Source: Schmidtea polychroa
Lineage: Eukaryota
Assembly: GCA_044892525.1 (NCBI GenBank)
Contig: CM097885.1
Span: 177,506,001 to 177,570,000, forward strand
Length of the DNA stretch: 64,000 nucleotides
Direction of reading: 5' to 3'
The position numbers and the translations under genes were made by a program. Shown in pieces: positions 9,101 through 48,475 of this stretch (within the stretch, counting starts at the first letter, position 1; every line of letters begins with the position of its first letter). The notes beneath the pieces are model-generated. The model worked only from the letters and a program-made list of their open reading frames with translations, searched no databases and was not told the origin of the DNA.

Positions 9101-12100
9101 CTAGCTATTGCGATAACGCACCCCGATAACACGATGCCATCACTCCCACTACCAGACGGACATTTTGGTAGAATGGTAGGAGAAGTGATGTACACATACC
9201 AGTGTACCAAGACGTATGCACGAATGCCAGAAAAATCCATACTACCCGAAAAGAGATGTGCAAATGAATTAGAAATTCGTTATAAAGGACAAAATCGATT
9301 CGTCCAACCAGTCACTAGAATCATGAATCCAGTGGGTTTCTACCCAAATCTCTTTAACTGTTCTAATGCATACGGACCTTTGTATGAAAGACCCGATGGG
9401 AAATGGATGATGTTACCGGGAAAAACCATATCCGAGGAACCCAAGAAATTTGGATTAATAGAACTCGCCACAGAGCTGGATTTCAAACCTATAGACGTGT
9501 CAAACGGTGGTATGTATTCCCCAGAAGATCTAGAAACAGCACGACTTAACGTACTCTTCCCAGCCAGACGAGAATCCATTTTGTCTAATATGGTAACAAT
9601 AACTGGGGGCACAAACTATCAATCAGGCCCGAATTACGAGCTGCTATTATCGCCAGACCATTTTCAACAAGCTACGTCAAACATGATGAAAGCAATGTGG
9701 GGAAGATTCTTAGTTTTTGGACAAATGATGGCCGGGATATTAGGGATCATACTCATAATTCAGATAGTTAGAGTAATACTAACACAAATGTTAGCTTGTT
9801 TCGATATATACAAGCGGGAAAAGAAAGTTAACTGGAAAATGATAGTAGGTTTCTTACCATTTTTAGCTAAAACCATGGTATTACATGGCCACTCAAAAGA
9901 CATTCATCGGATAAAGCGATTGATTAAAGTATTAACAAAGATTAAAGGAACCGACGAAGAAGTAGGCAGACGATTCCGGAAAGTAATGTACGATGAAGCA
10001 ACAAGACGACAATTGAAAAAGAATAAGCCAAAATTCTTGGACCGATTTAGAAGCCAATCATCTAACAGCGATAGTGACGACGATGATAACGGGAACGATA
10101 AATGTCTTTATCCAAACAGAAACCCAAACGAAAAACCATTGGAAACGGCACCATATTGGGAAAAGGAAAAGACAAACACCTGGATCGCCAATGGAAGCTA
10201 TATACCACCGGATATCGTGGGACCACAAGCAGCTTTGACCATGACACAAAATATGTATCCGCAATTACCGAGTCAACCCGGTATGCATTATATGCCGACA
10301 CGACGTACCAAAAGTGTAGATCAAGCAGATGACGTAAGAACAATCGCAGCGATGAGTCTACCTGGAGGTCCAGCAGTAACAGTCATGATCCAAATCAATG
10401 GTAAAGAAACCAATGCTATGATAGACACAGGAGCTAATGTATCAGCGATAGCGATTAATCAAATCCCCAGTAAACACTGGAAAGATATCGAATCAACAAC
10501 AATTCACATCATAGCATGTAGTAAAGAAACAGTGGACGTGGTCGGAAGATGGTGGACTACATTGAGATACCAGGACAACGAAATTGAAACGTATTTGGCA
10601 GTAATACCAAAACTTAGCGTACCATGCATAATCGGAACGGACCTGATGCCAGAATTATTAAAAGAAGTCGTAATAGACTTAACAACTATGTGTTTAAAAG
10701 ACAAAACCGGTAGAATATGCAAAATGAATGCAGTAATCAGATGTCCAGAAAAAATAATAGTACCAGCAAAATCGCAGATGATTTGTCAGATAAAAGTGGA
10801 TACGGGTATGGAAGGAGAAGTTATCTTTGAACCCAGCAAGTCATTCGAAAAGCGACGAGAGTTACCACTCGCAAGGGAAATAATAACAATAAACCAAGAA
10901 GGAGTGATACCGCTCAACATCACGAATTTCGAAGAAGAAGACAAAATCATTTATGAGAACGAAAAATTGGGAAGATTGACCCCAATGATGGACATAGAAT
11001 TACCGAAAGTGACCAACGAGATGATCAAAGATGATGAATTATGGACAATAGATAGTATGTTGTTGACGAATGATGAAAAGAAAAAATTGCACCGATTGTT
11101 GGTGGAATATAAAGATATATTCGCCATCTCAGATTTAGATTTGGGTACATGCGATGTTACCCTACATGCAATACCCCTCATAGATGAAGCTCCAATTGCA
11201 TTAAGACCATACAAGCTAGCAGAAATGCAAAAAGAAATAGCCGAAGCAGAAGTACAAAAGATGCTGGACGCAAAAGTAATCGAACCGAGTTGCTCACCTT
11301 GGCAATTCCCAGTGGTCATGGTAAAAAAGAAAGATGGCACCCAACGATTCTGTATCGATTATCGGAAGTTAAACGCAGTAACCAAGAGAGATACCTATCC
11401 ATTGCCGGACATCAATGAGATGTTATTGATGTTGCAAGGGGCAGCATATTTTACTTCTTTAGATCTAAAAAGTGGATACTGGCAGATTAAAGTCAAAGAT
11501 GAGGACAAGGAGAAAACAGCTTTCACGTTGGGACGAGATCTATATCAATTCAGGAAAATGCCATTCGGACTGACCAACGCACCAGCATCATTTCAACGGT
11601 GTATGAACTTTGTCACTCATGGAATCAAACAATGTATGGTATATATTGATGATTTACTAATCTATTCAGCGACATTTGAACAACATCTGGAAGATATCCG
11701 AAACGTATTTATTAGATTAAGACAGTGGAAACTCAAACTCAAACCATCAAAATGCGATTGGGCAAAGGAAAAAGTCACGTTTTTGGGACACATAGTGTCA
11801 GCTAAAGGAAAGGAGCCAGATCCAAGAAACATTGAGAAAATAAAAACATGTCCAGCACCGAAAACGGTCACCCAAGTTCAGGAATTTCTAGGATTATGCG
11901 GATACTATCGCAAATTTATCAAAAATTATGCAGGAATTGCAAAACCAATCCAGGAATTAGTAAAGAAGGACATTTCGTTCATTTGGGGGAAGGAACAACA
12001 AGAGGCGTTTGAAACGCTGAGAGACAAACTAATCGAAGCACCTATCCTAGTACACCCAGATTTTAAGAAGCCATTTCTATTGGCAACGGATGCAAGCGGG

Positions 12101-12976
12101 TACGCGGCAGGCGCGATTCTGGGACAATTAGACGATGAAGGAAAAGAGAGAGTAATCGGGTATTACAGCCGAACATTCAAAAAGCACGAGAAGAACTATT
12201 CGGTAACGGAACGGGAAGCATTGGCTATAATACAAGCTATCAAACACTTCCGATATTTACTATGGGGACATGAGATATGTATAACCACAGATCATCAACC
12301 ATTGGTGTGGTTAGGGCAACATAAAGAAGCGTCCAGTAGGCTGATGAGATGGGCCATGCAATTGCAAGAATACTCCCCATTTATAAAATTCAAAGCGGGA
12401 AGAGCAAATGCCAACGCCGATTGTATGTCAAGATTTATTTTTCCAGAGTTGGTGGATTCCGAAATGCAACGCATATGCTTAATAGTAGCGGAAGATTTGG
12501 ATTTCTGTCAATTGCGAAAAGACCAACAAGAGGACGCGGAATTAAAACAAATTATCGATTATGTAAAAACCGGAAAGACAGATGTATATGCGAAAGACCA
12601 AAAATTAAAAGAACATATGGATAAACACCGACACCGATATATTATAGAGAAAGATTGGTTGCTGATAATGGATGGGGAAAAACGATTAATGTGTATACCG
12701 GAAAACCGACGAAAAGAGTTACTAACGCAATATCACGATGGGAGATTGGGAGGACATATGTCATCGAAAAAGACGTTAGCAAGAATGAAACAGAAATATT
12801 TTTGGCCTACGTTAACTGAAGATGTAACCGAATGGGTAAAAAAATTGTCTAACTTGTGCAACCAGGAAGAATACTGGATCGAAATGGAAAGCACCTTTAA
12901 CGCCAATGCCAGTACCAATAGAACCAATGACAATGATATCCATGGACGTAGTTGGTCCACTACCAGAGTCAGATAA
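3194..12976 (+). CDS. Polyprotein part 1: Gag - UBL x3 - Bcl-2-like - envelope glycoprotein - protease - RT - RNase H - integrase N-terminus
   Basis: 3,260-aa ORF with the motifs listed in the sub-features. The frame is also open for 115 codons upstream of the ATG (2849-3193). Confidence 0.95.
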   Translation: MTNVVKTDEYKEKFRGEPFNGNANKLATFITNFEVYITVCGWTPEAISKRMPLFLCDSALEVYLEAKERDTKLEKWEDIKTFLKKTFGASKPINQALGELANRKQRANESITLYASELRRLAKKAMNGKLPEENLIGYFIEGLRREEVRASVGCQMCKTLEEAIDWATRCELHLPAQMNIMQEEGRIATAIAKADNGDNNNQEPKMNQFIPGAHQIFKPPQGRSNGNNGNRNNPNNENNFNNRRNMNDNKQCRTCGKPGHWDRDCYRNSNCNRCGRRGHTENVCQLRGCFNCGQPGHISRDCRERGQQQRPPQRNNNYIANPQRQSNPNEGKQMNVMQEISQMKQMMQQMMRPRQESAPQQTQNIRMMRSTENLNNYEVHQHVQEWQRLQAEEERIKQERNQQRQEQPLRINMMKLVKDMKSQYCYNYGKNPRVVPMTEPEKVKETTTEMKTENSTTILKGNQRIQKIFWKKIKDKIEKEHNKAKTETEDENNKSKEQTSQLNHQMLQESESEETTIFERKKLKRVPRMRNLQINMMKRTKDVASSDEEEDYVSSLGGEILQLNEISEPPKGEIKEEESENEITSESEDEDIEIKLRKAREEAIKQVAEILPVVVRNQEFIDVIPFRRFVQKVMKLERNEKDLIPNEEKSIIKKYMEKMKQADTTRYVIKIGTSRGLERMWIKNTVTDELFDWIREHLGSSRKKEYLYQYQGEQIKPDMHLVDALIWPGETQILKLHKEKQPANLYDWAKDAKAEYDFNIKLKLEQIKQCTLRRNLDKLIKQIQEQVEDNWDLLITRRAPAMYELMSRLRDTEMLRMSDWRTINLIHKYGRLKETQPQRLEITIWLPNEEKRRIKMSNQSTVDDLVSKINQEITEKVRSESSDGMVDDVVMMYDKIILRAEDDTSLSEMGMWDNHQIIRIVPMDEFRTRDVTYQKEIRDRMKTLYQKSTEIIEIHQQWLKEKELQGKITKLNTRSCRRTPWERVWNAENKEWEIRKGIFVETDIGETESESEEEAEEPPEYEEEAREQTSDDEGETDVTSESENEARHIHAMRKKEREYADMDGEEAIEAREREEKERYKQLGDILAMGAKNQKRQVVALANIILKTSENIHNLRGMAKAIEEYRQYNEWYPEQLEQIIRKWRNQEWAQDTQERYHIRIKYPDKSIEELEVHPTTKIRELKKKLAYETPFHLQLFGKSLDDNADVGITPMRLEETNVLTMAETLGKPLKRKSKITKPTKGSLSTPSPNKAPSKSNETEEVEEIILEDSDDEPGERSPLLVRWPTGAEMWTNNQPSTSYQQPTKLNIKEIIDNTTETETDEQFQKQREPTKVTPEGQTDKIIDEWNEWLRNNDSSLPRTDNERNPNYENTREAGTMMEKRAKGRPKKQGEKSEFKTKEQLKQEQGQVRLEKLDKIVWDLKEAQPTIERGEKWIRELLKDMLIITNPQLRRLWQRKVASTEARQLWHTISGIIPKLIKEKTKTTKTDWDETKRVIEQLTTNANDDEHHLVVITYLMYNLMGLAARKIPNKQFANHVEMTVSIIENTIEPHIIRAGGWKRLIQAPRKNEQERSMQVRLKKLLNELEWELPMKDPASRKASINSLMMTMMIWMLCTSGATGFTIYDCDNMIMRDKYSLRDIEECRQASPNKLDIVRTKVTYHVYQESDFIRTQARECVVSKKVLAYYCGQYSYSTLILPGLDKEIVSIQREDCKELFRTGALKMHNGVTIHGQTGMIKTESVYVSGKVKSSDGSCNGGTYTIRGEVISGVVVIESYTVELKEYEAQFDANNYQMKTNPACKATENVCRTGVSTIIYEANTQKCRLQMLKSALFNEVKGEIYENENDEDGNDRVRMRNGKPMPPSPREKRLSTQKTPTALITDDPDLGMRFIKEKETTKCDSIVYKTNYAGIYMSRQIIDRAVGKIATEDVKLYLYANNKMDFLFHRGQTTLQKVYYDLIQNDCSLNKEILKTKLAIAITHPDNTMPSLPLPDGHFGRMVGEVMYTYQCTKTYARMPEKSILPEKRCANELEIRYKGQNRFVQPVTRIMNPVGFYPNLFNCSNAYGPLYERPDGKWMMLPGKTISEEPKKFGLIELATELDFKPIDVSNGGMYSPEDLETARLNVLFPARRESILSNMVTITGGTNYQSGPNYELLLSPDHFQQATSNMMKAMWGRFLVFGQMMAGILGIILIIQIVRVILTQMLACFDIYKREKKVNWKMIVGFLPFLAKTMVLHGHSKDIHRIKRLIKVLTKIKGTDEEVGRRFRKVMYDEATRRQLKKNKPKFLDRFRSQSSNSDSDDDDNGNDKCLYPNRNPNEKPLETAPYWEKEKTNTWIANGSYIPPDIVGPQAALTMTQNMYPQLPSQPGMHYMPTRRTKSVDQADDVRTIAAMSLPGGPAVTVMIQINGKETNAMIDTGANVSAIAINQIPSKHWKDIESTTIHIIACSKETVDVVGRWWTTLRYQDNEIETYLAVIPKLSVPCIIGTDLMPELLKEVVIDLTTMCLKDKTGRICKMNAVIRCPEKIIVPAKSQMICQIKVDTGMEGEVIFEPSKSFEKRRELPLAREIITINQEGVIPLNITNFEEEDKIIYENEKLGRLTPMMDIELPKVTNEMIKDDELWTIDSMLLTNDEKKKLHRLLVEYKDIFAISDLDLGTCDVTLHAIPLIDEAPIALRPYKLAEMQKEIAEAEVQKMLDAKVIEPSCSPWQFPVVMVKKKDGTQRFCIDYRKLNAVTKRDTYPLPDINEMLLMLQGAAYFTSLDLKSGYWQIKVKDEDKEKTAFTLGRDLYQFRKMPFGLTNAPASFQRCMNFVTHGIKQCMVYIDDLLIYSATFEQHLEDIRNVFIRLRQWKLKLKPSKCDWAKEKVTFLGHIVSAKGKEPDPRNIEKIKTCPAPKTVTQVQEFLGLCGYYRKFIKNYAGIAKPIQELVKKDISFIWGKEQQEAFETLRDKLIEAPILVHPDFKKPFLLATDASGYAAGAILGQLDDEGKERVIGYYSRTFKKHEKNYSVTEREALAIIQAIKHFRYLLWGHEICITTDHQPLVWLGQHKEASSRLMRWAMQLQEYSPFIKFKAGRANANADCMSRFIFPELVDSEMQRICLIVAEDLDFCQLRKDQQEDAELKQIIDYVKTGKTDVYAKDQKLKEHMDKHRHRYIIEKDWLLIMDGEKRLMCIPENRRKELLTQYHDGRLGGHMSSKKTLARMKQKYFWPTLTEDVTEWVKKLSNLCNQEEYWIEMESTFNANASTNRTNDNDIHGRSWSTTRVR
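3947..4099 (+). other. Three CCHC nucleocapsid zinc knuckles of Gag
   Basis: CRTCGKPGHWDRDC, CNRCGRRGHTENVC, CFNCGQPGHISRDC (CX2CX4HX4C). Confidence 0.97.
5189..5404 (+). other. Ubiquitin/SUMO-like domain 1 within the polyprotein
   Basis: RYVIKI...LFDWIREHLG...YLYQYQGEQIKPDMHLVDALIWPGETQILKL resembles the SUMO-like F.F.G..I....T...L.M..GD.I pattern; no terminal GG. Confidence 0.55.
5708..5959 (+). other. Ubiquitin-like domain 2 within the polyprotein
   Basis: LEITIWLPNEEKRRIKMSNQSTVDDLVSKI...VVMMYDKIILRAEDDTSLSEMGMWDNHQIIRIV follows the beta-grasp pattern (TV..L..KI; DD.SL.E.G). Confidence 0.7.
6653..6853 (+). other. Ubiquitin-like domain 3 within the polyprotein
   Basis: IRIKYPDKSIEELEVHPTTKIRELKKKL...LQLFGKSLDD aligns by eye with ubiquitin LEVEPSDTIENVKAKI...LIFAGKQLED. 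Confidence 0.8.
7484..7873 (+). other. Bcl-2-like helical domain (clear BH2, degenerate BH1)
   Basis: IENTIEPHIIRAGGWKRL vs Bcl-xL LNDHLEPWIQENGGWDTF; upstream RVIEQLTTNANDDEHHLVVITYL occupies the position of TVVEELFRDGVNWGRIVAF but lacks NWGR. Confidence 0.72.
7982..9883 (+). other. Envelope-like glycoprotein of chuvirus / BEL-Pao env type (class III-like), in frame inside the polyprotein
   Basis: Signal-like SINSLMMTMMIWMLCTSGATG then FTIYDC..YSLRDIEEC, YYCG, DGSCNGG, REKR (8777-8788), GEVMYTYQC, CANELEI, FVQPVTRI, GGMYSPEDL; TM at 9707-9793; second hydrophobic stretch at 9833-9883. Family assignment is from recalled motif pattern, not a search. Confidence 0.8.
10370..10700 (+). other. Retroviral-type aspartic protease
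   Basis: AMIDTGANVS (D at 10424) and CIIGTDLM. Confidence 0.93.
11190..12440 (+). other. Reverse transcriptase and RNase H (Ty3/Gypsy)
   Basis: SPWQFPVVMVKKKDG, RFCIDYRKLN, DLKSGYWQI, MPFGLTNAPASFQR, YIDD at 11642, LATDASG, TDHQPL, NANADCMSR. Confidence 0.98.
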
Positions 12977-15900
12977 AGGAAATATTTACATTCTGGTGAT
13001 CACAGACTTTCTTACGAAATTTCCAGAAGCATTCGCGATGCCAGACCAAAAAGCTAAAACAATCGCAAAAATTTTGGTAGAAGAGATATGCTGCCGATAT
13101 GGAACACCAAAACAGATATTAACCGATCAGGGAACTAATTTTATGAGTGAAATAATGAGCGAAGTAACAAATTACTTCAAAATAGCAAAGCTAAGAACAT
13201 CTCCATACCACCCTCAAACCAATGGGATGACGGAAAGATTTAATGGAACACTTATACAAATGCTATCAAACTACGTCGATCGTCACCAACGAGATTGGGA
13301 CGAATATATAAACCTATGTCTTATGGCGTACAGAATGTCGATTCACGCATCAACGAAAATGAGCCCATTTAAATTAATGTACGGAAGAGAGTGCAACATG
13401 CCAATGGACCTGGAATACCAACCACCGATATCGCAGTATATGGAGATCGACGATTATGTTACGAAATTCAAGGAAAGAATGCAAGAAATTTGGGAAACTG
13501 CGGGATTGAATATCAAGTTCTACCAGGAAAGTTATAAAGATTTACACGATCGAAAGAAAAACGTGAAGCAACATACGTTTCAAACAGGTGATTGGGTAAT
13601 GATAGAAACCCCGGAATTAATTCCAGGAACCACAAAAAAGTTACAACGCAACGGAAAAGGACCATATGAGATCTTATTCGTAGGCGAAACCAATGTAAGA
13701 GTGAAATTGATAAATAATCCATTCACCAGGCCAATATACGTGAACGTGGCACGATGTAAATCAATTCCAAAAACCGCCACCAGTCAACCAGAAGGTCGAA
13801 CATTAACCACACGTTCGCAAACATACAGAATGAACATGATGCAACAACTCGCAGAACCGATCACCGGACGATTGGGTATCCAACCATCAGAAGCAGAAAA
13901 GATTGTAAAAGAGGTAAAAATTAAAATACCTGGATGGGCAAAAGATCGATTAGATTTCGAAATATTAGGAGGATTATTGACGATGATCGAAAATTATGCG
14001 AACAGAGAGAGGACACATCCGTTATTGCGAGTAGTCAAAAGCCAATGGCCAATATTATTTACAATAACAGATCATTACGGAGACACACCATTACACAAAC
14101 TCATGAAAGTAGGTAACAACGAGCAAATACTAGAAACAATAGAAGCATTTCACGACTGCAAGCGATCAACAGAACAAACAAACAACCAAGGTTACACACC
14201 ATTAATGATAGCAGCAAACAGAGAAAAAACCAAAGACATTATAACCGCATTACTTGATACTGGATCAAAAATAACTACACAAGACCACGAGCGGAAAAAT
14301 GCACTACATCATGCTATCGAAGGGAAAAGTACCGAGGCGTTCACGTCATTGATGGAACTACTATCATATGAGGACAATCGGGAAGTCGGAAACATGTATG
14401 ATGGATTGTTAACAGCGATCAAAGAAAAACTGACAACAATTACCGGAATATTAATTACATGGAGAAATCCAATTCAAAACGATTATATGATCAACGTAAA
14501 CGAAGCGTTCACGAGAGGAGAGAACACGCTGATGAGAGAAGCTATGAAAGGACATCATTTATTCGAAATTCCGAATCAATTACTAGAACGAGGGATAAAA
14601 TTCACAAATCATAAAGACGAACAGTTAGCAAAAAAGCGAATCGACACATTCGAAAAATCCCTATTCCAATTTACTAACCAAGCACGAAATAAATATTGGG
14701 AAACGGTAAGTGTGTTATATATGATGGACACAATGAATAACATCCGCGAGAATTACCTGGATATTATCCAAATACTTACAGCAGAGGAACGAATCAATAA
14801 TCCAAGCGGAAAGAAAACGAAAATAAGGTATGGGAAATCAAGGGAACCAAAATTGACAACGAACCAAAAGGTCACAAATAACGTCATCGAAACAAAATCA
14901 ATGAGTATAGATCAGGAGGCAATAATACGCAAAGCGAAAGAGGTATTCTTTGAGGAAATGCTAGAGTTGTCAGACGAAATAATATTGTCAAAAATAATAA
15001 AAGCTGTACATACATACGCAAGAGATCAAACCACGGGTTTAGATATTGGGAAAATCAAAACCTTCTTGCCTCGAGCATTTACGATGGTAACGAAGGATTC
15101 CAGAACACCCCTACAACAAGCAATACTAGCAGCAAAAGAAAATAGAGCAATAACGATCATGAGAATCCTTGGAGATATGGGCGAGGAAACCAACACGAAA
15201 AATGAACAAGGCGAAACCGCCATGATGTACGCAGCTATAACGAAAATACACCCAAAAACACTCCACATACTACATCAATCGGGATCGAGACTAGACGAAA
15301 GGTCCAATGAAGGAAATTCCACCTTGGACTGGGCAACCATACAGCCAAACTTAGAAATGATCAGATTCATTTGCAAAAATGCGACAAAAGAAGAAGTTGA
15401 AAATATATGCAAAAACACATCTCAATTTCAGTGGAATACGGTACGGAAAAATCTGGAAGCAATGAAATTATTAATAACATGGAGAATACCACAAAGTAAT
15501 AAATATGCGATAAATATAAACGAATTCTACGAAAACGGAGAAAACGCGATGGTAAAGAATACATTAACTAAAGGGGGGACACCAAAAATTATTTTAATAG
15601 TACTAAACAGAGAAGACCTCAAATTCACGCAAAATCAGAGCGAGCAACAAAGAATTGGGAAACATCGTCGCATTCAATTAAGAGAATTAGTCAAAGAATG
15701 GAATAGAAAGAGACACGCTGCAACGGGCAGAAAAGAGTTTGAATTCGAAGCAAAATTAGCAAGAAACAGAGTGCTAACAGCATATCGCAGATTATTGAAC
15801 GATATAAATGTCGAGGACGACATTTTAAACGACAGCGGGGGAGATAAACACGATGACAATAACGGAAAAGGCCGAAAGGAGGATAAAGAGAAAAGAGAAC

Positions 15901-17048
15901 CGGAGGAGGATAAACCGGAAAACAAGGATTCGGATACGAAAAGAGAGGGAAACAGCCCGGGAACTAAGACCAAAGAGGAGGAAAAACCGAATAATGGAAA
16001 ACAGAGGGTATGCCTACCTTTCACTAACAAAGAAATAGAGACAAATATGATATTAATGATAATTATGCTTACCATGATAGAGTTAGTAACAGCTCATGGA
16101 GGGACGAGAACGATAAAAGAAACCAAAGAAGCGGAGAATCAAGATAGCAATGAGGACGAACTAAAACAAGAAAAGAAAAAGCAAGCACAAGAGCAGCAGT
16201 GGGATTTAAAGGAAGAATGGGACTTAAAGGAAAGGTGCATACTAGGAAGATGCATGTCTAGAGCGTATCAGAAACTAGTACTGATAAATGAGGACACAGA
16301 ACCAATAACAGAAGTAAGAATACAAGAAGCATACCGAAATCGAGACGGGAAAAGAATAACGAACGTTAAAGGAAAAGAGGTACACCTAGGAAAAGGTGGC
16401 GAAGTAGTAATAACGCAGCTCCAACCAAGAAAAGAGCACAAAGTCTGTATTTCAAGATTAGGACCGGGTGAGAGATGCCATCAATATGTGACGCAGCAGC
16501 AGCCCCCGAAGGAATATACGGTTTGTATCTGGAGGAACGAATCAAAAAGAGAATGCCGACGATACCCGGGGAAAAGAGGAAAGAAAAGAAAAAACCACGA
16601 CGAAAAGGACGAAGGAGGAAAGCACAAGAAAACTGGCGAGGAAGCTCAGGACAACTATGTTTCGGAGGAAGAGATGGAAAAAATACAAAAGATGGCAAAG
16701 GAGGGTATGAACGAGGAAATAGCAAGAATACGAGAGATGATGAAAGGGAATGGCAAAAGAGGGAACGAGAAAAGTACAGAAGCAATATCAACATTAACAA
16801 ACAAGGAAAAACCAGAGAGTATAAGCGTGAAACAGATGATGTGGATCAGTGGGATAATAATAACAGGGGCATTCCTAATCATAACGGGGGGAACAATAAA
16901 AATAATTAAAGACAAACGACATCGCGGAGAACTAGAAATGACCCGAATCCGAAACTTCCAACATCGAGTGAAACGACCAAGTGATATCAAACAAGAACAG
17001 TGGGTGGAGGCCTGGAACGTTCAGCGCCCTCCAAACTCACGTATATAG
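12843..17048 (+). CDS. Polyprotein part 2: integrase (HHCC completion, DDE core, GPY) - ankyrin blocks - C-terminal signal/TM module
   Basis: Frame reads NCLTCATRK..MDVVGPLP..TDQGTNF..NGMTERFN..GPY. It joins part 1 if one A is removed from the 7-A run at 12838-12844, giving one 4,617-aa ORF (3194-17048). Confidence 0.92.
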   Translation, partial: NCLTCATRKNTGSKWKAPLTPMPVPIEPMTMISMDVVGPLPESDKGNIYILVITDFLTKFPEAFAMPDQKAKTIAKILVEEICCRYGTPKQILTDQGTNFMSEIMSEVTNYFKIAKLRTSPYHPQTNGMTERFNGTLIQMLSNYVDRHQRDWDEYINLCLMAYRMSIHASTKMSPFKLMYGRECNMPMDLEYQPPISQYMEIDDYVTKFKERMQEIWETAGLNIKFYQESYKDLHDRKKNVKQHTFQTGDWVMIETPELIPGTTKKLQRNGKGPYEILFVGETNVRVKLINNPFTRPIYVNVARCKSIPKTATSQPEGRTLTTRSQTYRMNMMQQLAEPITGRLGIQPSEAEKIVKEVKIKIPGWAKDRLDFEILGGLLTMIENYANRERTHPLLRVVKSQWPILFTITDHYGDTPLHKLMKVGNNEQILETIEAFHDCKRSTEQTNNQGYTPLMIAANREKTKDIITALLDTGSKITTQDHERKNALHHAIEGKSTEAFTSLMELLSYEDNREVGNMYDGLLTAIKEKLTTITGILITWRNPIQNDYMINVNEAFTRGENTLMREAMKGHHLFEIPNQLLERGIKFTNHKDEQLAKKRIDTFEKSLFQFTNQARNKYWETVSVLYMMDTMNNIRENYLDIIQILTAEERINNPSGKKTKIRYGKSREPKLTTNQKVTNNVIETKSMSIDQEAIIRKAKEVFFEEMLELSDEIILSKIIKAVHTYARDQTTGLDIGKIKTFLPRAFTMVTKDSRTPLQQAILAAKENRAITIMRILGDMGEETNTKNEQGETAMMYAAITKIHPKTLHILHQSGSRLDERSNEGNSTLDWATIQPNLEMIRFICKNATKEEVENICKNTSQFQWNTVRKNLEAMKLLITWRIPQSNKYAININEFYENGENAMVKNTLTKGGTPKIILIVLNREDLKFTQNQSEQQRIGKHRRIQLRELVKEWNRKRHAATGRKEFEFEAKLARNRVLTAYRRLLNDINVEDDILNDSGGDKHDDNNGKGRKEDKEKREPEEDKPENKDSDTKREGNSPGTKTKEEEKPNNGKQRVCLPFTNKEIETNMILMIIMLTMIELVTAHGGTRTIKETKEAENQDSNEDELKQEKKKQAQEQQWDLKEEWDLKERCILGRCMSRAYQKLVLINEDTEPITEVRIQEAYRNRDGKRITNVKGKEVHLGKGGEVVITQLQPRKEHKVCISRLGPGERCHQYVTQQQPPKEYTVCIWRNESKRECRRYPGKRGKKRKNHDEKDEGGKHKKTGEEAQDNYVSEEEMEKIQKMAKEGMNEEIARIREMMKGNGKRGNEKSTEAISTLTNKEKPESISVKQMMWISGIIITGAFLIITGGTIKIIKDKRHRGELEMTRIRNFQHRVKRPSDIKQEQWVEAWNVQRPPNSRI
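14070..14607 (+). other. Ankyrin-repeat block 1
   Basis: DHYGDTPLHKL, NNQGYTPLMIAA, DHERKNALHHAI, GENTLMREAM. Confidence 0.9.
15096..15629 (+). other. Ankyrin-repeat block 2 (internal duplicate of block 1)
   Basis: DSRTPLQQAI, NEQGETAMMYAA, SNEGNSTLDWA; tail LLITWRIPQSNKYAININEFYENGEN...KFT mirrors ILITWRNPIQNDYMINVNEAFTRGEN...KFT of block 1. Confidence 0.88.
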
Positions 17049-17208
17049 AAAGGAATATGACTGTATATAATTGTAAAAAGTAAGTATATTTTATGTATAT
17101 AACAGTACTATATCTTTATATAAGCGCGGTATCAATATTATACAATAACGGGAATCATAAAATAAAATTAAATTTACATAAGAGTTGAAAAGTGTATATA
17201 AATTAAGA

Positions 17209-17568
17209 ATGGATCAAGGAAATAACGAAATGAACCACAATACAGTAACTGAAGAATTATGGAAGCAACAATGTGCCGTATTAGCACAATTAGTGTCCAA
17301 TTTGCAAGAACAAGGACTGACGATGCACAGAAACCTAATCGAGAGTATGAACAGAGGATTTAGTTATTTGAAGATAATTGAAGACCAGAGGTTAAAAATC
17401 GAACAAATGCAAAGAGAAATGGAGAGGATAACCCAATATAGCCATAGACAGGAAATTGAACTAGAAAGAATGATGGAGGAAGCAGAACAGACAGAAATAG
17501 AAGACTGGTCGGAATGGCTAATGAATAGAGAGGAGAGCGGACACGAAGCCGACTCTTCCGAACCCTAA
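17209..17568 (+). CDS. Accessory ORF A: small coiled-coil protein with acidic tail
   Basis: ATG at 17209 (the track start 17185 is TTG); heptad E/Q/L-rich helix; same compositional bias as pol. Confidence 0.6.
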   Translation: MDQGNNEMNHNTVTEELWKQQCAVLAQLVSNLQEQGLTMHRNLIESMNRGFSYLKIIEDQRLKIEQMQREMERITQYSHRQEIELERMMEEAEQTEIEDWSEWLMNREESGHEADSSEP

Positions 17569-17653
17569 ACCAAACCTAGCTTAAAATGTAAATAATTGTA
17601 AATAAAATATCGAACCTGTATCGATAAGAACTATATGTACATATAATTATAGA

Positions 17654-19042
17654 ATGGATAAACGACAAAGAGAAGAGTTCAGAGAGATTGTCGAGCAAAT
17701 CCGAAAATCTACAACGATCAGAATACACAAACATGTTATGTGCGGAATATGTGAAAAGTTACTAAAAGAACCCCACCAAACCCTATGTGGATGCAGAGTA
17801 TGTAAGGAATGTATCAGTGAAGCAATAAAGAATAGACCACAGTGGTGCCCGGTGTGCAAAGAGACACTAATATCGAGTTTAGAAGACACTAACGAGGATA
17901 AAGCCGCCGTGAAAGACATGTTAAACACCAACCTGGGATGCAAAAATGCCCCATGCGAATGGAAAGGAGTAATATGGAAGGTAGTGCAACATATGGGGGA
18001 ATGTATGTATAGAATCGGCCAGTGTGAAAGGTGCCATAAAACCATTCGAGCAAGCGAAGAAAAAGAGCATCATAGCCAGTGTGAAGAGAGACTAGAAAGA
18101 TGTGAACATTGTGGAGAAATAGATACGTGGAAAAATCTCACCATCAAACATCACAATGTCCAAGAAGAAAAGGTATGTGCAGAGTTCAGTGGGGAATGCC
18201 CGAACGGATGCGAGGAAGGGAGAATAATAAAAATAGCCCAACACTTAAAAGAAAGTGAGAAGAAAAGGATGATATGTGTACTAGGTAAATGGGGCTGTCA
18301 GAAACTATTACACCGAGGAGAGTTACCACATCATTTAGTAGAAAATGCTTCAACCCACGCAGAAATGTGGTCGACTACGTTACAAGAAAGCGATGAGAAA
18401 GTAAAACAAATGGAGATGGAGATAACATCGTTGAAAGTGTTAGTCAAAGAACTACTAGAAGAAAGGGAAGCGTTCGAAGAAGCCCGAGCAAACATAAAGA
18501 TGCAAATGAACCGAATAGAAATCAGTAATAATCAGGCCAAGGAGCTACACCAGAAAATACGGGAAATAAATCTAAATGAAGTAATACCAACAGCACCCTA
18601 CATATGGAAAATAACGGAAGTAAAAGAAAGAATACGAAAAGCAAAAACCGGAGAAGAGACAAGAATAACAAGTCCTGCATTCCATTCTTGGAAAAATGGG
18701 TACAAGATGAAAATAAGGATATATCCCAACGGAGATGGAACCGGATTGAATACACATTTTTCGATATTTTTTCTATTATGTAAAGGGGAATATGACGAAA
18801 TAATAGAATGGCCATTCCAGGCAAAAATCGATATCACAATGATGAATGACCAAAGCGTCCACGAACAAAGCTTTAAAACGACGGGAACCCAGCTGTGTTA
18901 CCGGCGACCTATTGATGAGGAAGGAGCAGCATCGGGAGCGCCTACATTCATCTTGCAGCAAAAGATGGAAGAGATGACGAGAAATGACACAATATATATA
19001 AAAATGACAGTACGAAGGGAAGGAAAGGGTAGAACGGAGTAA
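17654..19042 (+). CDS. traf: Accessory ORF B: full-length TRAF-family protein (RING - TRAF zinc fingers - coiled coil - MATH), intronless
   Basis: RING CGIC..CGCRVCKEC..CPVC; several C/H fingers; MATH core YIWKIT..SPAF..GYKMKIRIYPNGDGTG.NTHFSIFF..KGEYD.IIEWPF..GAPTF. Confidence 0.95.
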   Translation: MDKRQREEFREIVEQIRKSTTIRIHKHVMCGICEKLLKEPHQTLCGCRVCKECISEAIKNRPQWCPVCKETLISSLEDTNEDKAAVKDMLNTNLGCKNAPCEWKGVIWKVVQHMGECMYRIGQCERCHKTIRASEEKEHHSQCEERLERCEHCGEIDTWKNLTIKHHNVQEEKVCAEFSGECPNGCEEGRIIKIAQHLKESEKKRMICVLGKWGCQKLLHRGELPHHLVENASTHAEMWSTTLQESDEKVKQMEMEITSLKVLVKELLEEREAFEEARANIKMQMNRIEISNNQAKELHQKIREINLNEVIPTAPYIWKITEVKERIRKAKTGEETRITSPAFHSWKNGYKMKIRIYPNGDGTGLNTHFSIFFLLCKGEYDEIIEWPFQAKIDITMMNDQSVHEQSFKTTGTQLCYRRPIDEEGAASGAPTFILQQKMEEMTRNDTIYIKMTVRREGKGRTE

Positions 19043-19242
19043 CCCATCGAATAATGTTGTATATAATAACCTGTATATATCGGCGTATATATCCAATAAA
19101 ATATTATATAATAATGGTATGAAAAACCCTAAATACGAAAACCCAAAAATGATGCGAAAAATTTCCAAAGGGCCAGTAACCAATAAATAAATTTTTTTTT
19201 TTAAAAAAAAAAAAGAGATTAATCTATATCAATGATTTAGAA

Positions 19243-20298
19243 ATGACACAAGAGAGAATAACCGAAAATACGATAGCCCCAACCAATACCCACAAGACAC
19301 AAATTCCCAGAGAATATAACGAAAAATGGAACAAAGTAATGTTCCAACTAACTAACCTCACCCATAACTACATCGAAGAAGCTAGAGAAGATGAGAACAG
19401 TAAATATCAATGGCTAATCCACAATTTAAGAGAGGAAGCCGAAGCATGTAAAAGAGCATCAAAATGGGCATCATTAGAAAATACCCGCCAAGAAGCGCAC
19501 AGCCACTACTTAAAGCAGCTAGTGCAGGAAGCGAGAAAGAGACTTACCGATGAGAACACCAAGCGCGAAGCGGAAAAGCAAATAGAAGGAAGGAAAATGA
19601 TGCACTTAGTGGCAGAAGCGAGAAAATGGAAAAGACAAAACAGTGAAATGAAAAAAGAGATGAAAGAATTGCCCATGAGACTCGGATATGAAAGCGAACA
19701 AGGTAAATGGGAGGAGAATTTAATAATAAAGGAAGAATTGAAACGGTTGAGAAAGGTCGCCGCCCGAAGTCAAACCTGGCAAACAAAAGCTATGGAGTTT
19801 GAGCGACATTTGGCAATGAAATGCGACATAAGAGAGCACGAGAACGCCGCAATGGAAGAGATGATAACCCAACAAACAGGACGGATTGTGGAATTAGTAA
19901 ATCAGGTCGAAGAGATGAAAAGAGACCTTAATGGATTACAAGGATCGCTGGAACAAAGAAACATGGTCCTAGCGGGAAAAAATAAAAAATTAGAAAACGA
20001 GAGGAAAATGTATACCGAAAATATTAAAAACTTAGAAATAGAAATTGAAAAATGGAAGGGCGACGAGAAAATCAAGGCCCTAGACAAACAAATAGAGGCG
20101 AAAGACGAAGAGACAAGGTATCTCACCTATCTGCTCGACGAGGAATTGAACATCACTCGAGCTCTAAGAGACGAAATTAATGAATTGAGAGCTCAAATTC
20201 CCCAATATTACCTACCCTATGACCCTATTGCGATACAGTTGCATCCCGCGGTCGATAGTGATGAAGGTTATGTGGGACAGGAAGAAACCTTCGTATAA
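19243..20298 (+). CDS. Accessory ORF C: 351-aa coiled-coil protein ending in ETFV
   Basis: Long uninterrupted ORF, E/K/R-rich heptads, no recognisable catalytic motif. Confidence 0.75.
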   Translation: MTQERITENTIAPTNTHKTQIPREYNEKWNKVMFQLTNLTHNYIEEAREDENSKYQWLIHNLREEAEACKRASKWASLENTRQEAHSHYLKQLVQEARKRLTDENTKREAEKQIEGRKMMHLVAEARKWKRQNSEMKKEMKELPMRLGYESEQGKWEENLIIKEELKRLRKVAARSQTWQTKAMEFERHLAMKCDIREHENAAMEEMITQQTGRIVELVNQVEEMKRDLNGLQGSLEQRNMVLAGKNKKLENERKMYTENIKNLEIEIEKWKGDEKIKALDKQIEAKDEETRYLTYLLDEELNITRALRDEINELRAQIPQYYLPYDPIAIQLHPAVDSDEGYVGQEETFV

Positions 20299-20467
20299 GG
20301 GTGATAAAAGATAAAAACAAAAAAAAAATCGGGACGTACATCCCAAACAAAAAAATTAAAGTATTATAAAAGTACTCAAGGGACTGTAACCCGAACTATT
20401 AAATTTTATATAAATGTATATGTATAAGTCGCACTATAGCGCACCATTAACTGTACATATTATAGAT

Positions 20468-20920
20468 ATGAAAATCGAGGAAATAATAGAAATTACGAGC
20501 GACGTAGAAGAGGGAGAGATTGAGGCAGAAACAACAAAAACACAAACGCTAAAGGCCGAGTTACGGGAAGAGAAGTACGAAAACGAGAGACTAGTAAACA
20601 AATATATAGAAGACCGAAAAATGATTAAAATACTTAAGAAGGAGTGCGAAGTGCTAGGAGAAATAAAGAGAGAAGTCGAAGAGAAGAATGAATGGCTGCA
20701 AGAACAACGAAAACGAGGAAGAAATTGGGAAAAGATTGCAGAAGAACTATGGCAAGAGAGGGCAAGCTTCAAGGCAGAAGAAGTAATCCAGGATTATTGG
20801 AAAACAGAGGCGAAAGAACGCCAAATAACTATAAATGAATTAAATCAACAATTAGAGGAAAAACAACGAGAAAGTGAGGAAATGAAGAAATGGATTCGCA
20901 AATACCAAGAGATCGAGAGA

Positions 20921-20951
<31 letters not shown>

Positions 20952-21184
20952 GAAACCTTTCGCAGGAAAACGAACAAGATTTCCTACAAATCGAACTAAA
21001 AAGGAATCTCGACAAAAAACGGGAAGAAATTAGAAGACTGAAAAAGGAGATAAGGCACATGAAAAGGGAGGTCCGTGAAAAGAACAGACAGTTGGAAATG
21101 CTGCCCGAGTTAAGACACAGAGTCATTAAAGCGGAATCCACCTTGATGAGAATCGCCGAAAATAACCCAAATCAGAACCATTAA
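20468..21184 (+). CDS. Accessory ORF D: coiled-coil protein with a poly-Q run
   Basis: ORF 20414-21184; likely start is the ATG at 20468 after an acceptor-like TTATAG; (CAA)n gives Q9. Confidence 0.7.
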
Positions 21185-21239
21185 ATTAAGGGTCATTAAA
21201 ACCAATTGTAAATAAACATAATGAATGTATAATAGTATC

Positions 21240-21884
21240 ATGCGAGGCGAGATGATGATAACAATGGCGGTATTGATGATTCTGATGGAGAACAAACAAT
21301 TAAACGCCCAACCGAAAATCGTACGAGATTACCGCAATCAAAATCAAGAACCTAAACAAGAATCCGGCAAATGCACATACCCTATGACCGTAAAAACCCA
21401 TATCATCCAAACCATTCAATCAACCCGATCCCACATCAACAACATCCAAACAATGTGTAAAAAGAATCCCATTTGTAAAATGATAAACAAACAAATCTTC
21501 GAACAAAGCCAACAGATCGACCAGTTGGAACAACAAATGCAACAAGAGAATTTTGAAAATCTTGTAGAAAAGCCAAAACCACCTCCCGAAATCAATGACA
21601 CCCATTATCTCACATACGTGGTGATCGCAGAAACCCTCCTCCTATGTCTACCAATACTCATGATAATTTACGAAGTTAGAAATAGATGTAGAATCTCGAC
21701 AGCAATAAGAGTAACCTCGAACAGAAATCCTCAAGAAGTGCCGCTGACAAATCTTAACCCAACCCCATTCCGACCTCGAATCCCGAGTAACCAACCAATC
21801 CAGCCGAATTCTAACAGTCAGACCTATCTCAACATCAATACCCAAACCAACCAACAGCCGCCAGCAGAAGCATCAAATAGTTAA
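21240..21884 (+). CDS. Accessory ORF E: predicted type I membrane protein
   Basis: Signal-like MMITMAVLMILM, Cys-containing helical ectodomain, TM LTYVVIAETLLLCLPILMIIY, P/N/Q-rich tail. Confidence 0.72.
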   Translation: MRGEMMITMAVLMILMENKQLNAQPKIVRDYRNQNQEPKQESGKCTYPMTVKTHIIQTIQSTRSHINNIQTMCKKNPICKMINKQIFEQSQQIDQLEQQMQQENFENLVEKPKPPPEINDTHYLTYVVIAETLLLCLPILMIIYEVRNRCRISTAIRVTSNRNPQEVPLTNLNPTPFRPRIPSNQPIQPNSNSQTYLNINTQTNQQPPAEASNS

Positions 21885-22439
21885 CAGTCCATAAACTCTA
21901 ACTCAAACATTTGTGTTATCATATGTGGAAACTTTTATTGTATATAAAAACTATCACCTTAAGTGATACTTGCTTGGTCTTGATTTGACCTATATCTTAG
22001 AATAAAAACCTTTTTTTTTGTATAATTGTTTCGATATATCCTTTTTATGAATGCATGAAGTAAGATAACTATGCAATTGCGGGACGCAATTTTGATGGGT
22101 CCCCGAGTGATTTGTTGGGCTGAGCCGAAAGATAGCTGGGAAATCAGGTTAAACTTAACTAAAGAAAAATAAAAAATAAAATAAATAGATCGAGGAATAA
22201 AATAGAATAGAACATAAGAAAAGTAATAATTAGAAAATAAGAATTAAAACAAAAAACATAAAAATAAGAACAATTAAATAGGACAATAGAATGACGAAAA
22301 ATAACGTAAAAGGTAGTAGATAATAAGGAAATTAAGGAAAATAAATAAAAACATAATTTTAATAAAGAAAATAAGAAGAAATAACCCAAAAACAAGGAAA
22401 ATAAATTAAATGAATAAAATAAGGCGGTACTCAATTCTG

Positions 22440-22527
22440 ATTGGTCCGCATAAACAAAAAATACCTATATAAGTAAGCAGCAAATTCACTATAATCAATG
22501 TTAAAATCAAACCAATTATAGGTAAGA
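22440..22527 (+). promoter_or_regulatory. Promoter-like cassette: reverse CCAAT, TATA box, then a 5' splice donor
   Basis: ATTGG at 22440, TATATAA at 22466-22472, AG|GTAAGA at 22520-22527; a 32-bp CCAAT-containing direct repeat at 22493 and 22546. Confidence 0.4.
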
Positions 22528-24710
22528 ATAGTATTAACTATATGAAATCAATGTTAAAATCAAACCAATTATAGGTACTCGACAATCAGGAAAACCAAAC
22601 CATACTCAGATAACTATTAGGGACAGTTCTATAGACTACTCATTCATATAACCGATTGGATCAGTTTATATTTCGGCTCCGCCTTTGGAACTACAGAATT
22701 TTTCAAATAATCAAGTAAGGATGTATTGCTATTATGAAATTTGTTTTTGGAGGATTTAAATATTTCTATTATATTAACCTAACTTTTGAATAAAAACTTC
22801 TCCATTCGGTTTCGATCTTTTAACGATTTTATGGTTCATAAATTAATTTACAGGTCAATGAATTATAAATATTTATGTTATGTTTTGTCATCAAATGTAT
22901 TGATTATGCTAAAATTATTTGTTTTGAGAAACGTGGAGTTGAGGAGACCCACGCCATGGTATGAGGAGCCTTCGGGAGCTCAGCCGGCGGGTGTGGATCT
23001 CTTCAATCACGCAGCTGACGTGGGCCGGAATGTGGGGGCTTCCTCACGGGTCCGTCGCTGAGGGAAATAAAATGCTGCAAGCACGAGTTTAAAGTGTAGA
23101 GGAATATATTCCAATATTGAAAAGTAGAGCAAATCTGAATTGAAAATGACTGAGGTGGCTACAAACTCTTCCAAGTATGAGAATCTCATTTTCTTAGGTA
23201 CTATACTTTGAAATTTTCGTCTAACATCATGAATTAGTCTAGATCGACTACTCACTTCCGTGATACTCTATCATCTTGCGATAAATCCCCTTTTTCGTCA
23301 AAATTCATGTCAATTTTCATCTTAGCTGATAGAACCCAAGAGCTAATACATTCACTCTGATGTTATGCAGTAGTATAGGAAGTATATATGGGAGATCACT
23401 GAACGCTTTTATTTACTAAAAAGATATTTGGAGGAGTACGTTATTGTTTTTATCAAAAGCGCCTTAACTCTTTCTGAAATCCCCAATAGCCGTAATCTGA
23501 AGTCCGTTCAGTAAAAGACCCTCTGGCCTCATAACACAGTAAACATACAAGGAGAATTTACAAAAGTATTTAATTAAAAAGATAAAATTTCGTAAAAAAT
23601 TCTTTATTTTCATTAAAAAATTATAATTCTGAGTTACCAGTAGTAGGAGCATAATAATCATTTCGGGAAGTTACCCTTGATAGATGTCGCCAAGATGAGG
23701 AAGGGCTTGAGCGAGTTGATAAAATCTCCACCGGACAGGATATTCTGATGTAAAGCGAGAGAGGCAGTATAATAAAAAATTTTCCAAATTTTCGTGTTTG
23801 CTGAGAACTAAACAGTAGATTCATATCGGAGCTGAATGATTAAGTTCCAAAAATCGATGTAATCCAAGTTCGGCAGCATAGATAAAATATGAACATGTAC
23901 AGTGAGAAGGTATAGTCTGTCTGTAAGTATGCAGTGAATGAGATTGAGCAATCACCTGCAGGTAGAATCACATGTACAATAGCGAACAATTACATATGGC
24001 TTAGTCGATGTGATACTCATGCTGCCGGTACGGTAGCAGTGAATTCACGATTTAATCATCGATAATGAGAAAGTCGAATCCCATTGCACACACATGGTGA
24101 ACACCAACTTTTCTGAGAGATCTGAACACTAAGCCAGTTAACGAGGAGGCATGCAACAGATGGTTCGCATCATACATGTCATACAACTAGAATAGAAACT
24201 AGACTAGTCTAACTTATCGGCAGAGTGATTGATCAAACAGAGCAAAGTCCATTTGACTGTAAGGTTTTTGTAATCGCACGCATTTACAATTAACTCAAAT
24301 TAGAGTATTATAATCACGAATAAACTCAAATCTTTTAATTAATTTATTATCCCGATGTATTGCACCTGTCTGAATTGTTTTGCTGATAGTAAAGTCGAAT
24401 CTGGTCACGCTCATGTATTGACAAGTTTTCTTAATCCGCAATAAAATTATCATGTTGGGCAAAAAAGGGGGGGGGGAGAATTAATTTGTTAACCCGTAAA
24501 CATATAATTACTTTACGGATGTAATATCGATCAACAGGAAGTTTCGCTAACAGTCATTCCGTTTTCTTCTTGTCGGTCATTTCAACCCATGAATGTAATG
24601 TAGGGAATTTATGAGCCTTAATAAATAATTACGCTACTCTGATGGATTAGTAGAGCTAGCCAATTTTCGTCTTATCTCTATTATTCTTTCTTCATTATAG
24701 CTATCAAAAG

Positions 24711-25454
24711 ATGTTGCCAAGCACGAAATCGCCCATCAAACCCTGCTTCTCCTGCTCGGATAAAAATACCGTAATCCGAGAATTACAGGCCCAGATCGGT
24801 TGATATAAAAAGAAGATCGACGATCTGGAAGGTACCTGGTTTAGCCCAGTACAAATGAAGGAAGTTCAAAAGAAATTGTACCGCAGTGAGCATTGTCGCG
24901 ATGCTTTGATAAGCGAAAGTAGAGCTCAGCGTAGCCTAATCAAAGAGCAGTCCGAAGCTCTACATAAAGTTTACGTTCAAGCCGCTACAACCCGAAGGAT
25001 TGTTAGTATTCCGATTAAAGAAGCGGACAATGTCTTCCCCGTTCACCATGAACCTTCATTTAGTTCGCCACCCTTGTCGAAAAGATCTTGTCAGGAATGT
25101 GTGGAGGCCGACCTCTCCCCCAGGCCATCGGACGTACCTACTACCGGCACTGGCAAGGTATTGCATTCAGCCACGACGTCCTCGGCAATCTTGTCTGCCA
25201 ACCCCTCAAAACCTAAGCGCCGCCAATTGTCCAGAGCGGAGCGTAAAAAGCGCCAACGTGAACGAGCAATTGTCAAACAACGAGAACTATCTGTCAACCA
25301 CCCAAGTGCTTCGAATGATCCACCCGTAACGATCGATCTGACCGTAGGAATCCCAGGGCGAATCATATCTGCCGCTGGTGTGACTTGGGAGGAGAATGCC
25401 TCCGAGTTTTTTGATCTAGATGAGCTATTGGCGGATGCGGGGTGGGAGAAGTGA
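24711..25454 (+). pseudogene. ORF inside the putative LTR: CxxC, coiled coil, basic NLS-like segment, acidic-aromatic C-terminus; one in-frame TGA at 24801
   Basis: ATG 24711 is in frame with track ORF 24855-25454; a strong acceptor-like TTATTCTTTCTTCATTATAG lies 10 nt upstream. Confidence 0.5.
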
Positions 25455-26026
25455 TGGCCGCAACACGATGCAACCGTGCAGGGTGCGAATGGACAAATAA
25501 ACTATCTTGACTCTTTTTCTTCTTAATCTATTCTCCACCAAGTGTACTTGTTATGTAGTGTATAATTCTCTAATGTATCATGATAATAAAATAAAGGAAT
25601 ATTTGGTTAAATTTTTGTTGTTGTTTAAATCTAACTAGCTGTGATAAAGGTTCAGCGTAGTGTTCGCCAAGCGAGAGTAAAGTTTGAGTTCGAGAGGCAG
25701 TGGTCAATTTTGTGCCGAATAAGGGGTCAGGGTAGAGGGAGAATCTGATGAGGTAAACACACGTAAGTCCTTCCATCGGCCGTCAGAAAAGGGAAGTCGA
25801 GGCCTCAGTAAGGAGTAGTCCTAAGGTAGGGGCTCACCTGCTTACTATAGTCTCGCCGACATAGCACATTTCCAACGTGAAGCAATTCGCGGGTGCTATG
25901 TTGGAGGGCAAGTTGTGCGGGGTCCTGCTCCGGGTTGACACGGGCGTATGTAGCGTAATGATATGGGCACGCACCCCCTAGACAAGGACGTAGATTGAGC
26001 AGAGTCAACCAAGCACTACCCCAGCA

Positions 26027-26253
26027 GTAGATTGATATCGAAATCCGAATTGATTGAAAATAAGCTAAGGAAAAAACTCAATGATGGTAGGAAAATGTAT
26101 TTAACTTGTTACATTTGTAATGAAAATCAAGTATCGGTTTTGTTTTTACCTTGCGGACATGTAATTGTATGTTCTAAATGCCATGATTCAAATGTTCGCA
26201 AATGTAAAGCATGTTCAATGTATATTAATGAGTATCATACTATATACATTTAA
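26027..26253 (+). pseudogene. C-terminal IAP/MDM2-type RING coding fragment of a host gene
   Basis: CYICNENQVSVLFLPCGHVIVCSKC...CKAC...IYI-stop; AATAAA overlaps the stop; no start codon or upstream exon in the window. Confidence 0.8.
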
Positions 26254-48182: not shown

Positions 48183-48475
48183 TGTTAGACGCAATTAAAT
48201 TCAAGTCTTCTTCAAGCATTTATTTTTATAACAACTTCAAAATTGTGCCGTTTACTAGAGTATTTAAACACCAAGGCGTGATAATTATTAATATTTATGT
48301 AATTATTGGTCATACATTTAATTGATTTAATTTAATATAATTTAATATAATATGATATAATTTAATATAGAATTTAAATATAAAAATTTAACAGAAATAA
48401 TTATTTCTACTAACTGATCTCACTTCTACCATTTAACCATAATAATTTTATATAGAGATTTACTAACTCCTTACA
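48183..48475 (-). repeat. 3' LTR (293 bp)
   Basis: Direct repeat of 51684-51977; preceded on the minus strand by a polypurine tract. Confidence 0.96.

Follow-up and report, generated by a model that had tools for sequence, protein, structure and literature searches.

The window analyzed here, a 64,000-nt stretch of the Schmidtea polychroa genome, contains an uninterrupted gene for a complete TRAF protein, which raises the question of whether this gene belongs to the planarian's own TRAF repertoire or is the cargo of a retroelement, and, in the latter case, what maintains it there. The open reading frame (ORF) occupies positions 17654–19042 of the forward strand, as do all features of the element described below; it opens with ATG, closes with TAA, has no internal stops, and encodes 462 amino acids (aa). 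All parts listed in the original prediction are present and intact in this single intronless frame: a RING at residues 30–68 (17741–17857), TRAF-type zinc fingers at residues ~96–235 (17939–18358, from the Cys/His pattern), a coiled coil corresponding to TRAF-N at residues ~236–312 (18359–18589, inferred from the sequence and from alignment with TRAF-N in PDB), and a MATH/TRAF-C domain (18590–19018). Together they identify a member of the TRAF family of the TRAF2/3/5 type. The MATH domain was recognized by Pfam (PF21355, E 3e-26; PF22486, E 6e-26), and its best PDB matches are TRAF2/3/1/5 (E 1e-29 to 1e-24); the part comprising the RING and the first zinc finger is best matched by TRAF5/6/2 (E 1e-11 to 1e-8), while the RING scores under the Pfam cut-off (PF00097, E 7e-4). 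The RING is not of the canonical C3HC4 type, as its eight ligands (C30, C33, C45, C47, C50, C53, C65, and C68) are all cysteines (C4C4), and C47, within the motif CGCRVC, occupies the position of the vertebrate TRAF histidine. Thus, the protein resembles vertebrate TRAF2/3/5 in domain order and PDB matches, but differs from them in the RING type and in a MATH loop that reads SSSF in vertebrates, QLCY in the element protein, and xxCY/F in host triclad TRAFs.

The TRAF ORF is situated between pol and the 3' long terminal repeat (LTR) of an env-bearing Gypsy element of 33,133 bp. The 5' LTR lies outside the window, 3.2–7.1 kb upstream of its start (L031:2894–6805), and the 3' LTR spans 3914 nt at 22113–26026. 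The two LTRs are 99.7% identical (10 mismatches and 2 gaps in 3914 nt) and have TG...CA ends, and comparison of the flanks revealed the 4-bp target-site duplication GTAG (26027–26030); hence the element is 33.1 kb long and young. The first part of its polyprotein (3194–12976) comprises, by Pfam, Gag, CCHC knuckles, weak ubiquitin-like and Bcl-2-like segments, an in-frame Env-like fusion protein (PF24664, E 7e-68), protease, reverse transcriptase (RT), and RNase H (RH), and the second part (12906–17048) comprises the integrase (IN) core, ankyrin repeats, and C-terminal hydrophobic segments. The polyprotein frame is interrupted once in the window copy, at the N-terminal region of the integrase, whereas sibling copies read through. 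The ubiquitin-like (PF00240, E 0.012) and Bcl-2-like (PF00452, E 0.038) segments precede Env at the expected places, both under the cut-off, and a PDB search gave no match for the latter. Five accessory ORFs of 119, 462, 351, 256, and 219 aa follow pol: orf119 (17209–17568), whose homolog also precedes the TRAF in a sister family, the TRAF itself, the coiled-coil ORFs orf351 (19243–20298) and orf256 (20414–21184), and orf219 (21225–21884), which has signal-like and membrane-like hydrophobic stretches. The latter evolves far faster than its neighbors, with 40–49% identity in diverged copies.

By architecture, this is a Burro-type giant Gypsy element. Burro1/GYPSM1 and Burro-2/3/4 of Schmidtea mediterranea (Jurka 2007; Grohme 2018) are described as giant Gypsy elements in PMC6431247, and the element shares with the Burro group a length above 30 kb, multi-kb LTRs with TG...CA ends, a target duplication, a single polyprotein in the order Gag-CCHC-Env-PR-RT-RH-IN-ankyrin in which Env continues the reading frame from gag into pol, accessory ORFs, and a MATH_TRAF cargo, here in an accessory ORF; the ubiquitin-like and Bcl-2-like segments that Burro has before Env are represented by the sub-threshold candidates above. 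Traits specific to Burro1 (MATH in ORF1, and BIR) were absent in Pfam searches of the polyprotein for MATH and of the scanned element ORFs for BIR. Burro1 as described in PMC6431247 has only a MATH_TRAF_C domain, inside ORF1, whereas the window family has a complete TRAF in a separate ORF downstream of pol. A Burro-like element of Dugesia tigrina from the same review agrees with the window family in having MATH_TRAF_C in an accessory ORF and not in ORF1, but there the accessory MATH is upstream and is described as a domain only, while in the window element it is downstream and full-length; inspection by eye of the interval between the 5' LTR and gag of the window element disclosed no ORF of at least 60 aa that resembles a TRAF. 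Since Burro elements are known to carry a TRAF domain, the window TRAF is a fuller version of a known cargo.

Several further features were observed in and around the element. The 3' LTR contains an ORF (24855–25454; 199 aa from ATG) that is open in diverged copies (65–76% identity) and has no Pfam match, and the interval between the 5' LTR and gag (L031:7070–8396) contains two more ORFs of 161 and 251 aa from ATG. The 5' internal region carries tandem arrays with units of 24 and 74 nt (window 1–750 and 1457–1900). At the insertion site (window 26029–26250 and L031 ~2500–2893), an open frame ends in an IAP-type C3HC4 RING (PF13920, E 1e-10), so that the element appears to be inserted in an IAP-type RING frame, which may be either a host gene that was disrupted or part of an older element. 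Further downstream there are an intron-free 999-aa diaphanous-type formin with GBD, FH3, and FH2 domains, apparently a host gene (31052–34051), and, on the reverse strand, two small degenerate Gypsy-like elements (~40500–43900 and 48183–51951), the second of which has direct repeats of ~270 nt that are 3.5 kb apart.

The location of the TRAF in the element is not peculiar to this copy. A DNA search with the TRAF gave 362 candidates, of which the best 40 are all near full length at 91–100% identity. Exact motif counts over the whole genome, which are lower bounds, gave 119 for the RING and 172 for the MATH motif, i.e., at least 172 copies of the window-type TRAF; a MATH protein search of the genome, with the best 150 of 1482 candidates scored, was also performed, and a homologous-protein search with the element TRAF gave a single match. 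In all 20 sampled copies (matches on the forward strand with an open frame of 478–479 codons, and hence a sample biased toward intact genes), RT-RH, IN, the ankyrin tail, orf119, the TRAF, orf351, and orf256 are ordered as in the window, and four additional copies are collinear with it over both flanks. Among the 30 closest DNA copies, including that of the window, 21 have a single open frame and 9 are broken. All 27 scored Cys/His positions are retained in 49–50 of 50 copies, and all eight RING cysteines are preserved. Thus, the TRAF is a multicopy cargo in a fixed slot; since it is neither single-copy nor missing from sibling elements, the claim of capture by the element survives.

A Pfam MATH search, with the best 150 of 1551 candidates scored, revealed a sister family that is dispersed in the genome and is 74% identical to the window element in RT and 29% in the TRAF. 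Its accessory TRAF (474 aa) is full, occupies the same slot after the orf119 homolog, and has 253 motif matches, a lower bound. Upstream of it, the 4791-codon polyprotein frame of this family contains a RING-less MATH (270 motif matches, again a lower bound); the Burro1-type sister hence combines the polyprotein MATH with a full accessory TRAF. In one such element (G000:C1:21540627 and 21553128; L119, with relatives L111–L118), the two modules are ~12.5 kb apart. Directly after the sister TRAF there is an ORF with an IAP-type RING, in which Pfam gave no BIR match. The sister family fits the description of Burro1 in both its polyprotein MATH and its ORF for an IAP-type RING. The derivation of the polyprotein MATH from the accessory TRAF was considered and dropped, as the two are joined weakly in a FastTree tree (0.885) and the join was not resolved by IQ-TREE. 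Overall, at least 695 element-borne MATH copies (172 + 253 + 270) are present in the genome, and accessory TRAFs over the two families number at least 425.

The original prediction that the gene is kept under selection was addressed by pairwise NG86 estimates on 21 observed copies (210 pairs, which share ancestry and are not independent), and it holds: the element TRAF is under purifying selection. The median dN/dS is 0.13 (range 0.08–0.22; the 143 of 210 pairs with dS above 0.1) and reaches 0.08 where dS is near 1. By parts, the ratio is 0.047 for the RING (114 pairs), 0.108 for MATH (151 pairs), and 0.011 for RT-RH (112 pairs). In the sister family, five of six pairs yield 0.09–0.16, and the sixth pair differs at just three sites. 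These values, extending to dS near 1 and seen in two families, already refute the reading in which a captured host sequence is carried passively and without function, so that we give it next to no credence. Positive selection on the TRAF, which had been suggested by 99% identity in RT as against 83–90% in the TRAF, was also rejected, as dS is high as well and dN/dS between subfamilies is well below 1. The uneven dS along the element is consistent with recombination between element subfamilies.

Constraint is distributed unequally within the gene, with variable residues at 5 of 39 sites in the RING and at 33 of 143 sites in MATH. MATH sites with three states include 414, 420, and 421, in the subfamily-variable loop that reads SSSF in vertebrate TRAF2. 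In vertebrate TRAFs, this loop has a role in ligand binding.

The all-cysteine RING and the lack of introns had been taken as marks of the element gene, the former as a special change and the latter as a sign of a reverse-transcribed mRNA. Neither interpretation stands, because host planarian TRAFs have both. Seven full-length host TRAFs are encoded in a single open frame from RING to MATH, so that an intron-free frame is no proof of retro-copying, and all seven have a CGC RING, as do three Dendrocoelum TRAFs; a starfish TRAF3-like protein likewise has a C4C4 RING. The C4C4 state is therefore a clade trait of host origin. Among 151 library proteins, the position of the RING histidine reads CGC in 16 and CGH in 81, contains another residue in 16, and is off-pattern in 38. 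Nor is the change from His to Cys specific to the element, and it need not be inactivating, as C4C4 RINGs such as those of TMEM129 and CNOT4 can be active ligases according to the available text of PMC4024746.

These observations bear on the proposed dominant-negative action. The element TRAF might serve as a decoy that joins host TRAFs in heterotrimers or binds to the tails of receptors and, being incapable of ubiquitination, blocks signaling. It has the trimerizing coiled coil and MATH that such a decoy would need, its RING scores under Pfam cut-offs, the sister family also retains a RING-less polyprotein MATH, and ligases that lack a RING can be dominant negatives (in the available part of PMC4024746). 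A decoy, though, is expected to lose or relax its RING, whereas here no part of the gene is under stronger constraint than the RING, which is the least variable, has the dN/dS of 0.047, and retains all eight cysteines, and whose His-to-Cys change is the host state. We therefore regard a decoy as unlikely.

The suggestion that the expanded TRAF families of planarians are element-borne is correct only in part. A hand count based on frame length and clustering indicates that ~56 of the best 150 MATH matches among 1551 candidates look non-element, and this number is exceeded by the at least 695 element MATH copies. On the other hand, host clusters form a clade of their own in the tree and lie outside Burro, and no sign of their descent from the element was seen; the worm does have an expanded TRAF family of its own, distinct from the cargo of the element. 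In the 20 inspected host loci (L121–L130 and L151–L160), no Burro gag, env, or accessory ORFs adjoin the TRAFs; within 10 kb, distant RT or IN fragments were found at 5 of the 20 loci and a match to the LTR ORF at one. In 7 of 10 cluster loci, there is a gap between the RING and MATH matches, likely an intron. The clusters, located on G000:C2 at ~1–5 Mb and 105–124 Mb (L151–L160), consist of host TRAF genes that have the RING and MATH on separate exons, with some inverted pairs. Their separate placement also matters for the reading in which selection serves the worm and element-borne TRAFs are part of its immune repertoire. Although planarians express many TRAF transcripts (in the available text of PMC6109357) and element copies are numerous, the constraint is on differences between subfamilies and parallels that on pol and the other accessory ORFs, and the open frame has already been lost in 9 of the 30 closest copies, which makes such co-option highly improbable.

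The host ancestry that had been postulated is borne out by phylogeny. Full-length trees were constructed from 23–25 sequences chosen from 54 under LG+G4, without vertebrate TRAF3, TRAF4, and TRAF6, and were rooted with two cnidarian proteins automatically named TRAF4-like and TRAF6. When only one of the two element TRAFs is included, it is placed within the triclad clade in either case (support 96/94 and 97/98). Analyzed together, the two are sisters (95/96, subject to a long-branch warning and shared odd composition), and a quick mixture-model tree supports this pairing at 89. The MATH-only tree leaves the element TRAFs unplaced and has the host cluster genes as a clade of their own. The element TRAF resembles triclad host TRAFs (TRAF-2-like A of Dugesia japonica, TRAF-2/-4/-5 of Dendrocoelum, and L121–L125 and L128 of S. 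polychroa) in architecture, length (~450–490 aa), the CGC RING, single-frame coding, and tree clade, but is only 25–32% identical to them. No specific host donor was found in the full-length trees, and Dugesia TRAF-2-like A (DjTRAF2A) groups with its host ortholog L121 and not with the element TRAF.

The base composition of the gene, predicted to share the A-rich bias of pol, does so: the TRAF has A 0.41, A3 0.45, and T3 0.16, which match RT-RH of the same element (A 0.38, A3 0.44, T3 0.18) and are unlike host TRAF frames (A3 0.29–0.39, T3 0.30–0.44). Since the composition has shifted fully to that of the element and the branch is long, the TRAF has long been resident there, in agreement with the proposed age of the capture. 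The shared slot in two families favors a single old event, in which the element likely acquired the TRAF from the triclad family of the TRAF2/3/5 type.

Beyond the gene being intact and selected, its role is a matter of inference. On balance, we favor the reading that this Burro accessory ORF, likely captured once and held under purifying selection, encodes what is likely a full zinc-RING adaptor that tunes host survival or innate-immune signaling for the element. The protein would trimerize via its coiled coil and MATH, the MATH groove, with the loop that differs among subfamilies, would bind tails of receptors or adaptors, and the bound targets would be ubiquitinated by the TRAF itself or by ligases that it brings in. 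The RINGs of mammalian TRAF2/3/5 are weak or disputed ligases, and hence E3 activity of the element TRAF is not assured. It might act together with the weakly matched Bcl-2-like segment, and in the case of the sister family also with the IAP-type RING ORF, with the outcome that a cell in which the element is active stays alive or quiet. Such a role fits the other apoptosis-type cargo of the element and the effects of RNAi of host TRAF-2A/B in planarians, which leads to defects in homeostasis and cell survival (in the available parts of PMC8807557 and PMC7586133); Burro cargo of the apoptosis and ubiquitin type is described in section 7 of PMC6431247. Against it counts the report, in the available text of PMC8532177, that BURRO1 RNAi did not rescue smedwi-2(RNAi).

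The same architecture could instead serve the element internally, if the proteins that the TRAF ubiquitinates or scaffolds are the Gag, the Env, or the membrane accessory products of the element itself, as an aid to trafficking or the assembly of particles. In line with this, the same element encodes Env, ubiquitin-like segments, and two membrane-like proteins, and the slot of the TRAF ORF is constant, but the cytoplasmic tail of orf219 has no TRAF-binding motif conserved across diverged copies, and the host-like signaling architecture has been retained whole; we consider an internal role improbable. An LMP1-like pairing of the TRAF with the orf219 tail, initially suggested by a PxQ-like motif, was rejected, as the motif is lost in diverged copies.

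For the favored adaptor to be made, the template for translation of the accessory TRAF would be a processed or subgenomic mRNA, with AG near the ATGs and PUF-type sites after the stops as candidate signals. Four of the five accessory ATGs have AG 1–2 nt upstream, after an AT-rich tract, and a second ATG of orf256 (20468) has an acceptor-like context. As 103 of 357 internal ATGs also have AG within 3 nt, this signal is weak alone. Neither a leader nor a splice joint was found among the matches listed for contigs of runs presumed to be RNA, in which the TRAF is covered in X1 and partly in X6.

Another candidate signal is present in the AT-rich spacers between the ORFs (17049–21946). The six post-pol spacers (846 nt) contain 11 sense copies (at 17062, 17094, 17193, 17587, 17597, 17636, 19058, 19072, 20452, 21207, and 21939) and one antisense copy of TGTAHATA, compared with 0.57 expected from dinucleotide shuffles, none of 2000 of which reached 11. 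Elsewhere in the element, the motif occurs once in the polyprotein region and never in the accessory ORFs, and none was found in the 300 nt downstream of seven host TRAF stops. It recurs in a diverged copy and in four of six sister-family spacers examined. All six spacers of the accessory region contain such sites (loci: window 17049–21946, L136, and L114/L115). As UGUAHAUA, the sites match the PUF/Pumilio site UGUANAUA and are putative binding sites. Alternatively, UGUA could serve 3'-end processing. Planarian Pumilio is required in stem cells, as stated in the available text of PMC5855632. The spacer motif provides a first handle on the expression of Burro accessory genes.

A broader reading, which we put forward tentatively and hold to be possible but doubtful, is that Burro elements carry a virus-like accessory operon. 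A whole TRAF, held since before the two families split, would rewire host TNF or innate signaling via the subfamily-variable MATH groove; separate mRNAs might be produced via acceptors before each ATG and controlled by Pumilio through the spacer UGUAHAUA sites; and many of the traf and ankyrin transcripts that have been reported in planarians as "expanded" and as piRNA targets would derive from element genes and not from host genes.

The TRAF cargo of the window is not categorically new. The TRAF-domain, BIR, and Bcl-2 cargo of Burro elements has already been published, together with the proposal that it interferes with apoptosis and ubiquitination (PMC6431247). Apart from that review, with its TRAF domain, searches of an open-access library found no publication that describes a retrotransposon with a full TRAF, and a full TRAF ORF may already be present in the figures or supplements of Grohme 2018; the difference from the review is the complete TRAF as a separate ORF downstream of pol. 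In their available text, PMC6109357, PMC7586133, and PMC8807557 report the planarian TRAF expansion without reference to elements (the string "transpos" has zero occurrences in the latter two), PMC6824462 gives traf and ankyrin mRNAs as piRNA targets with the word Burro absent, and PMC8532177 and PMC11410931 mention Burro and not TRAF. The label of a domain in a review thus becomes a gene that can be tested, one for a complete adaptor of immunity or survival that is under strong selection in a retroelement. Because at least 695 MATH copies in this genome are element-borne, such copies can contaminate tallies of planarian TRAFs, probes for RNAi, and lists of piRNA targets.
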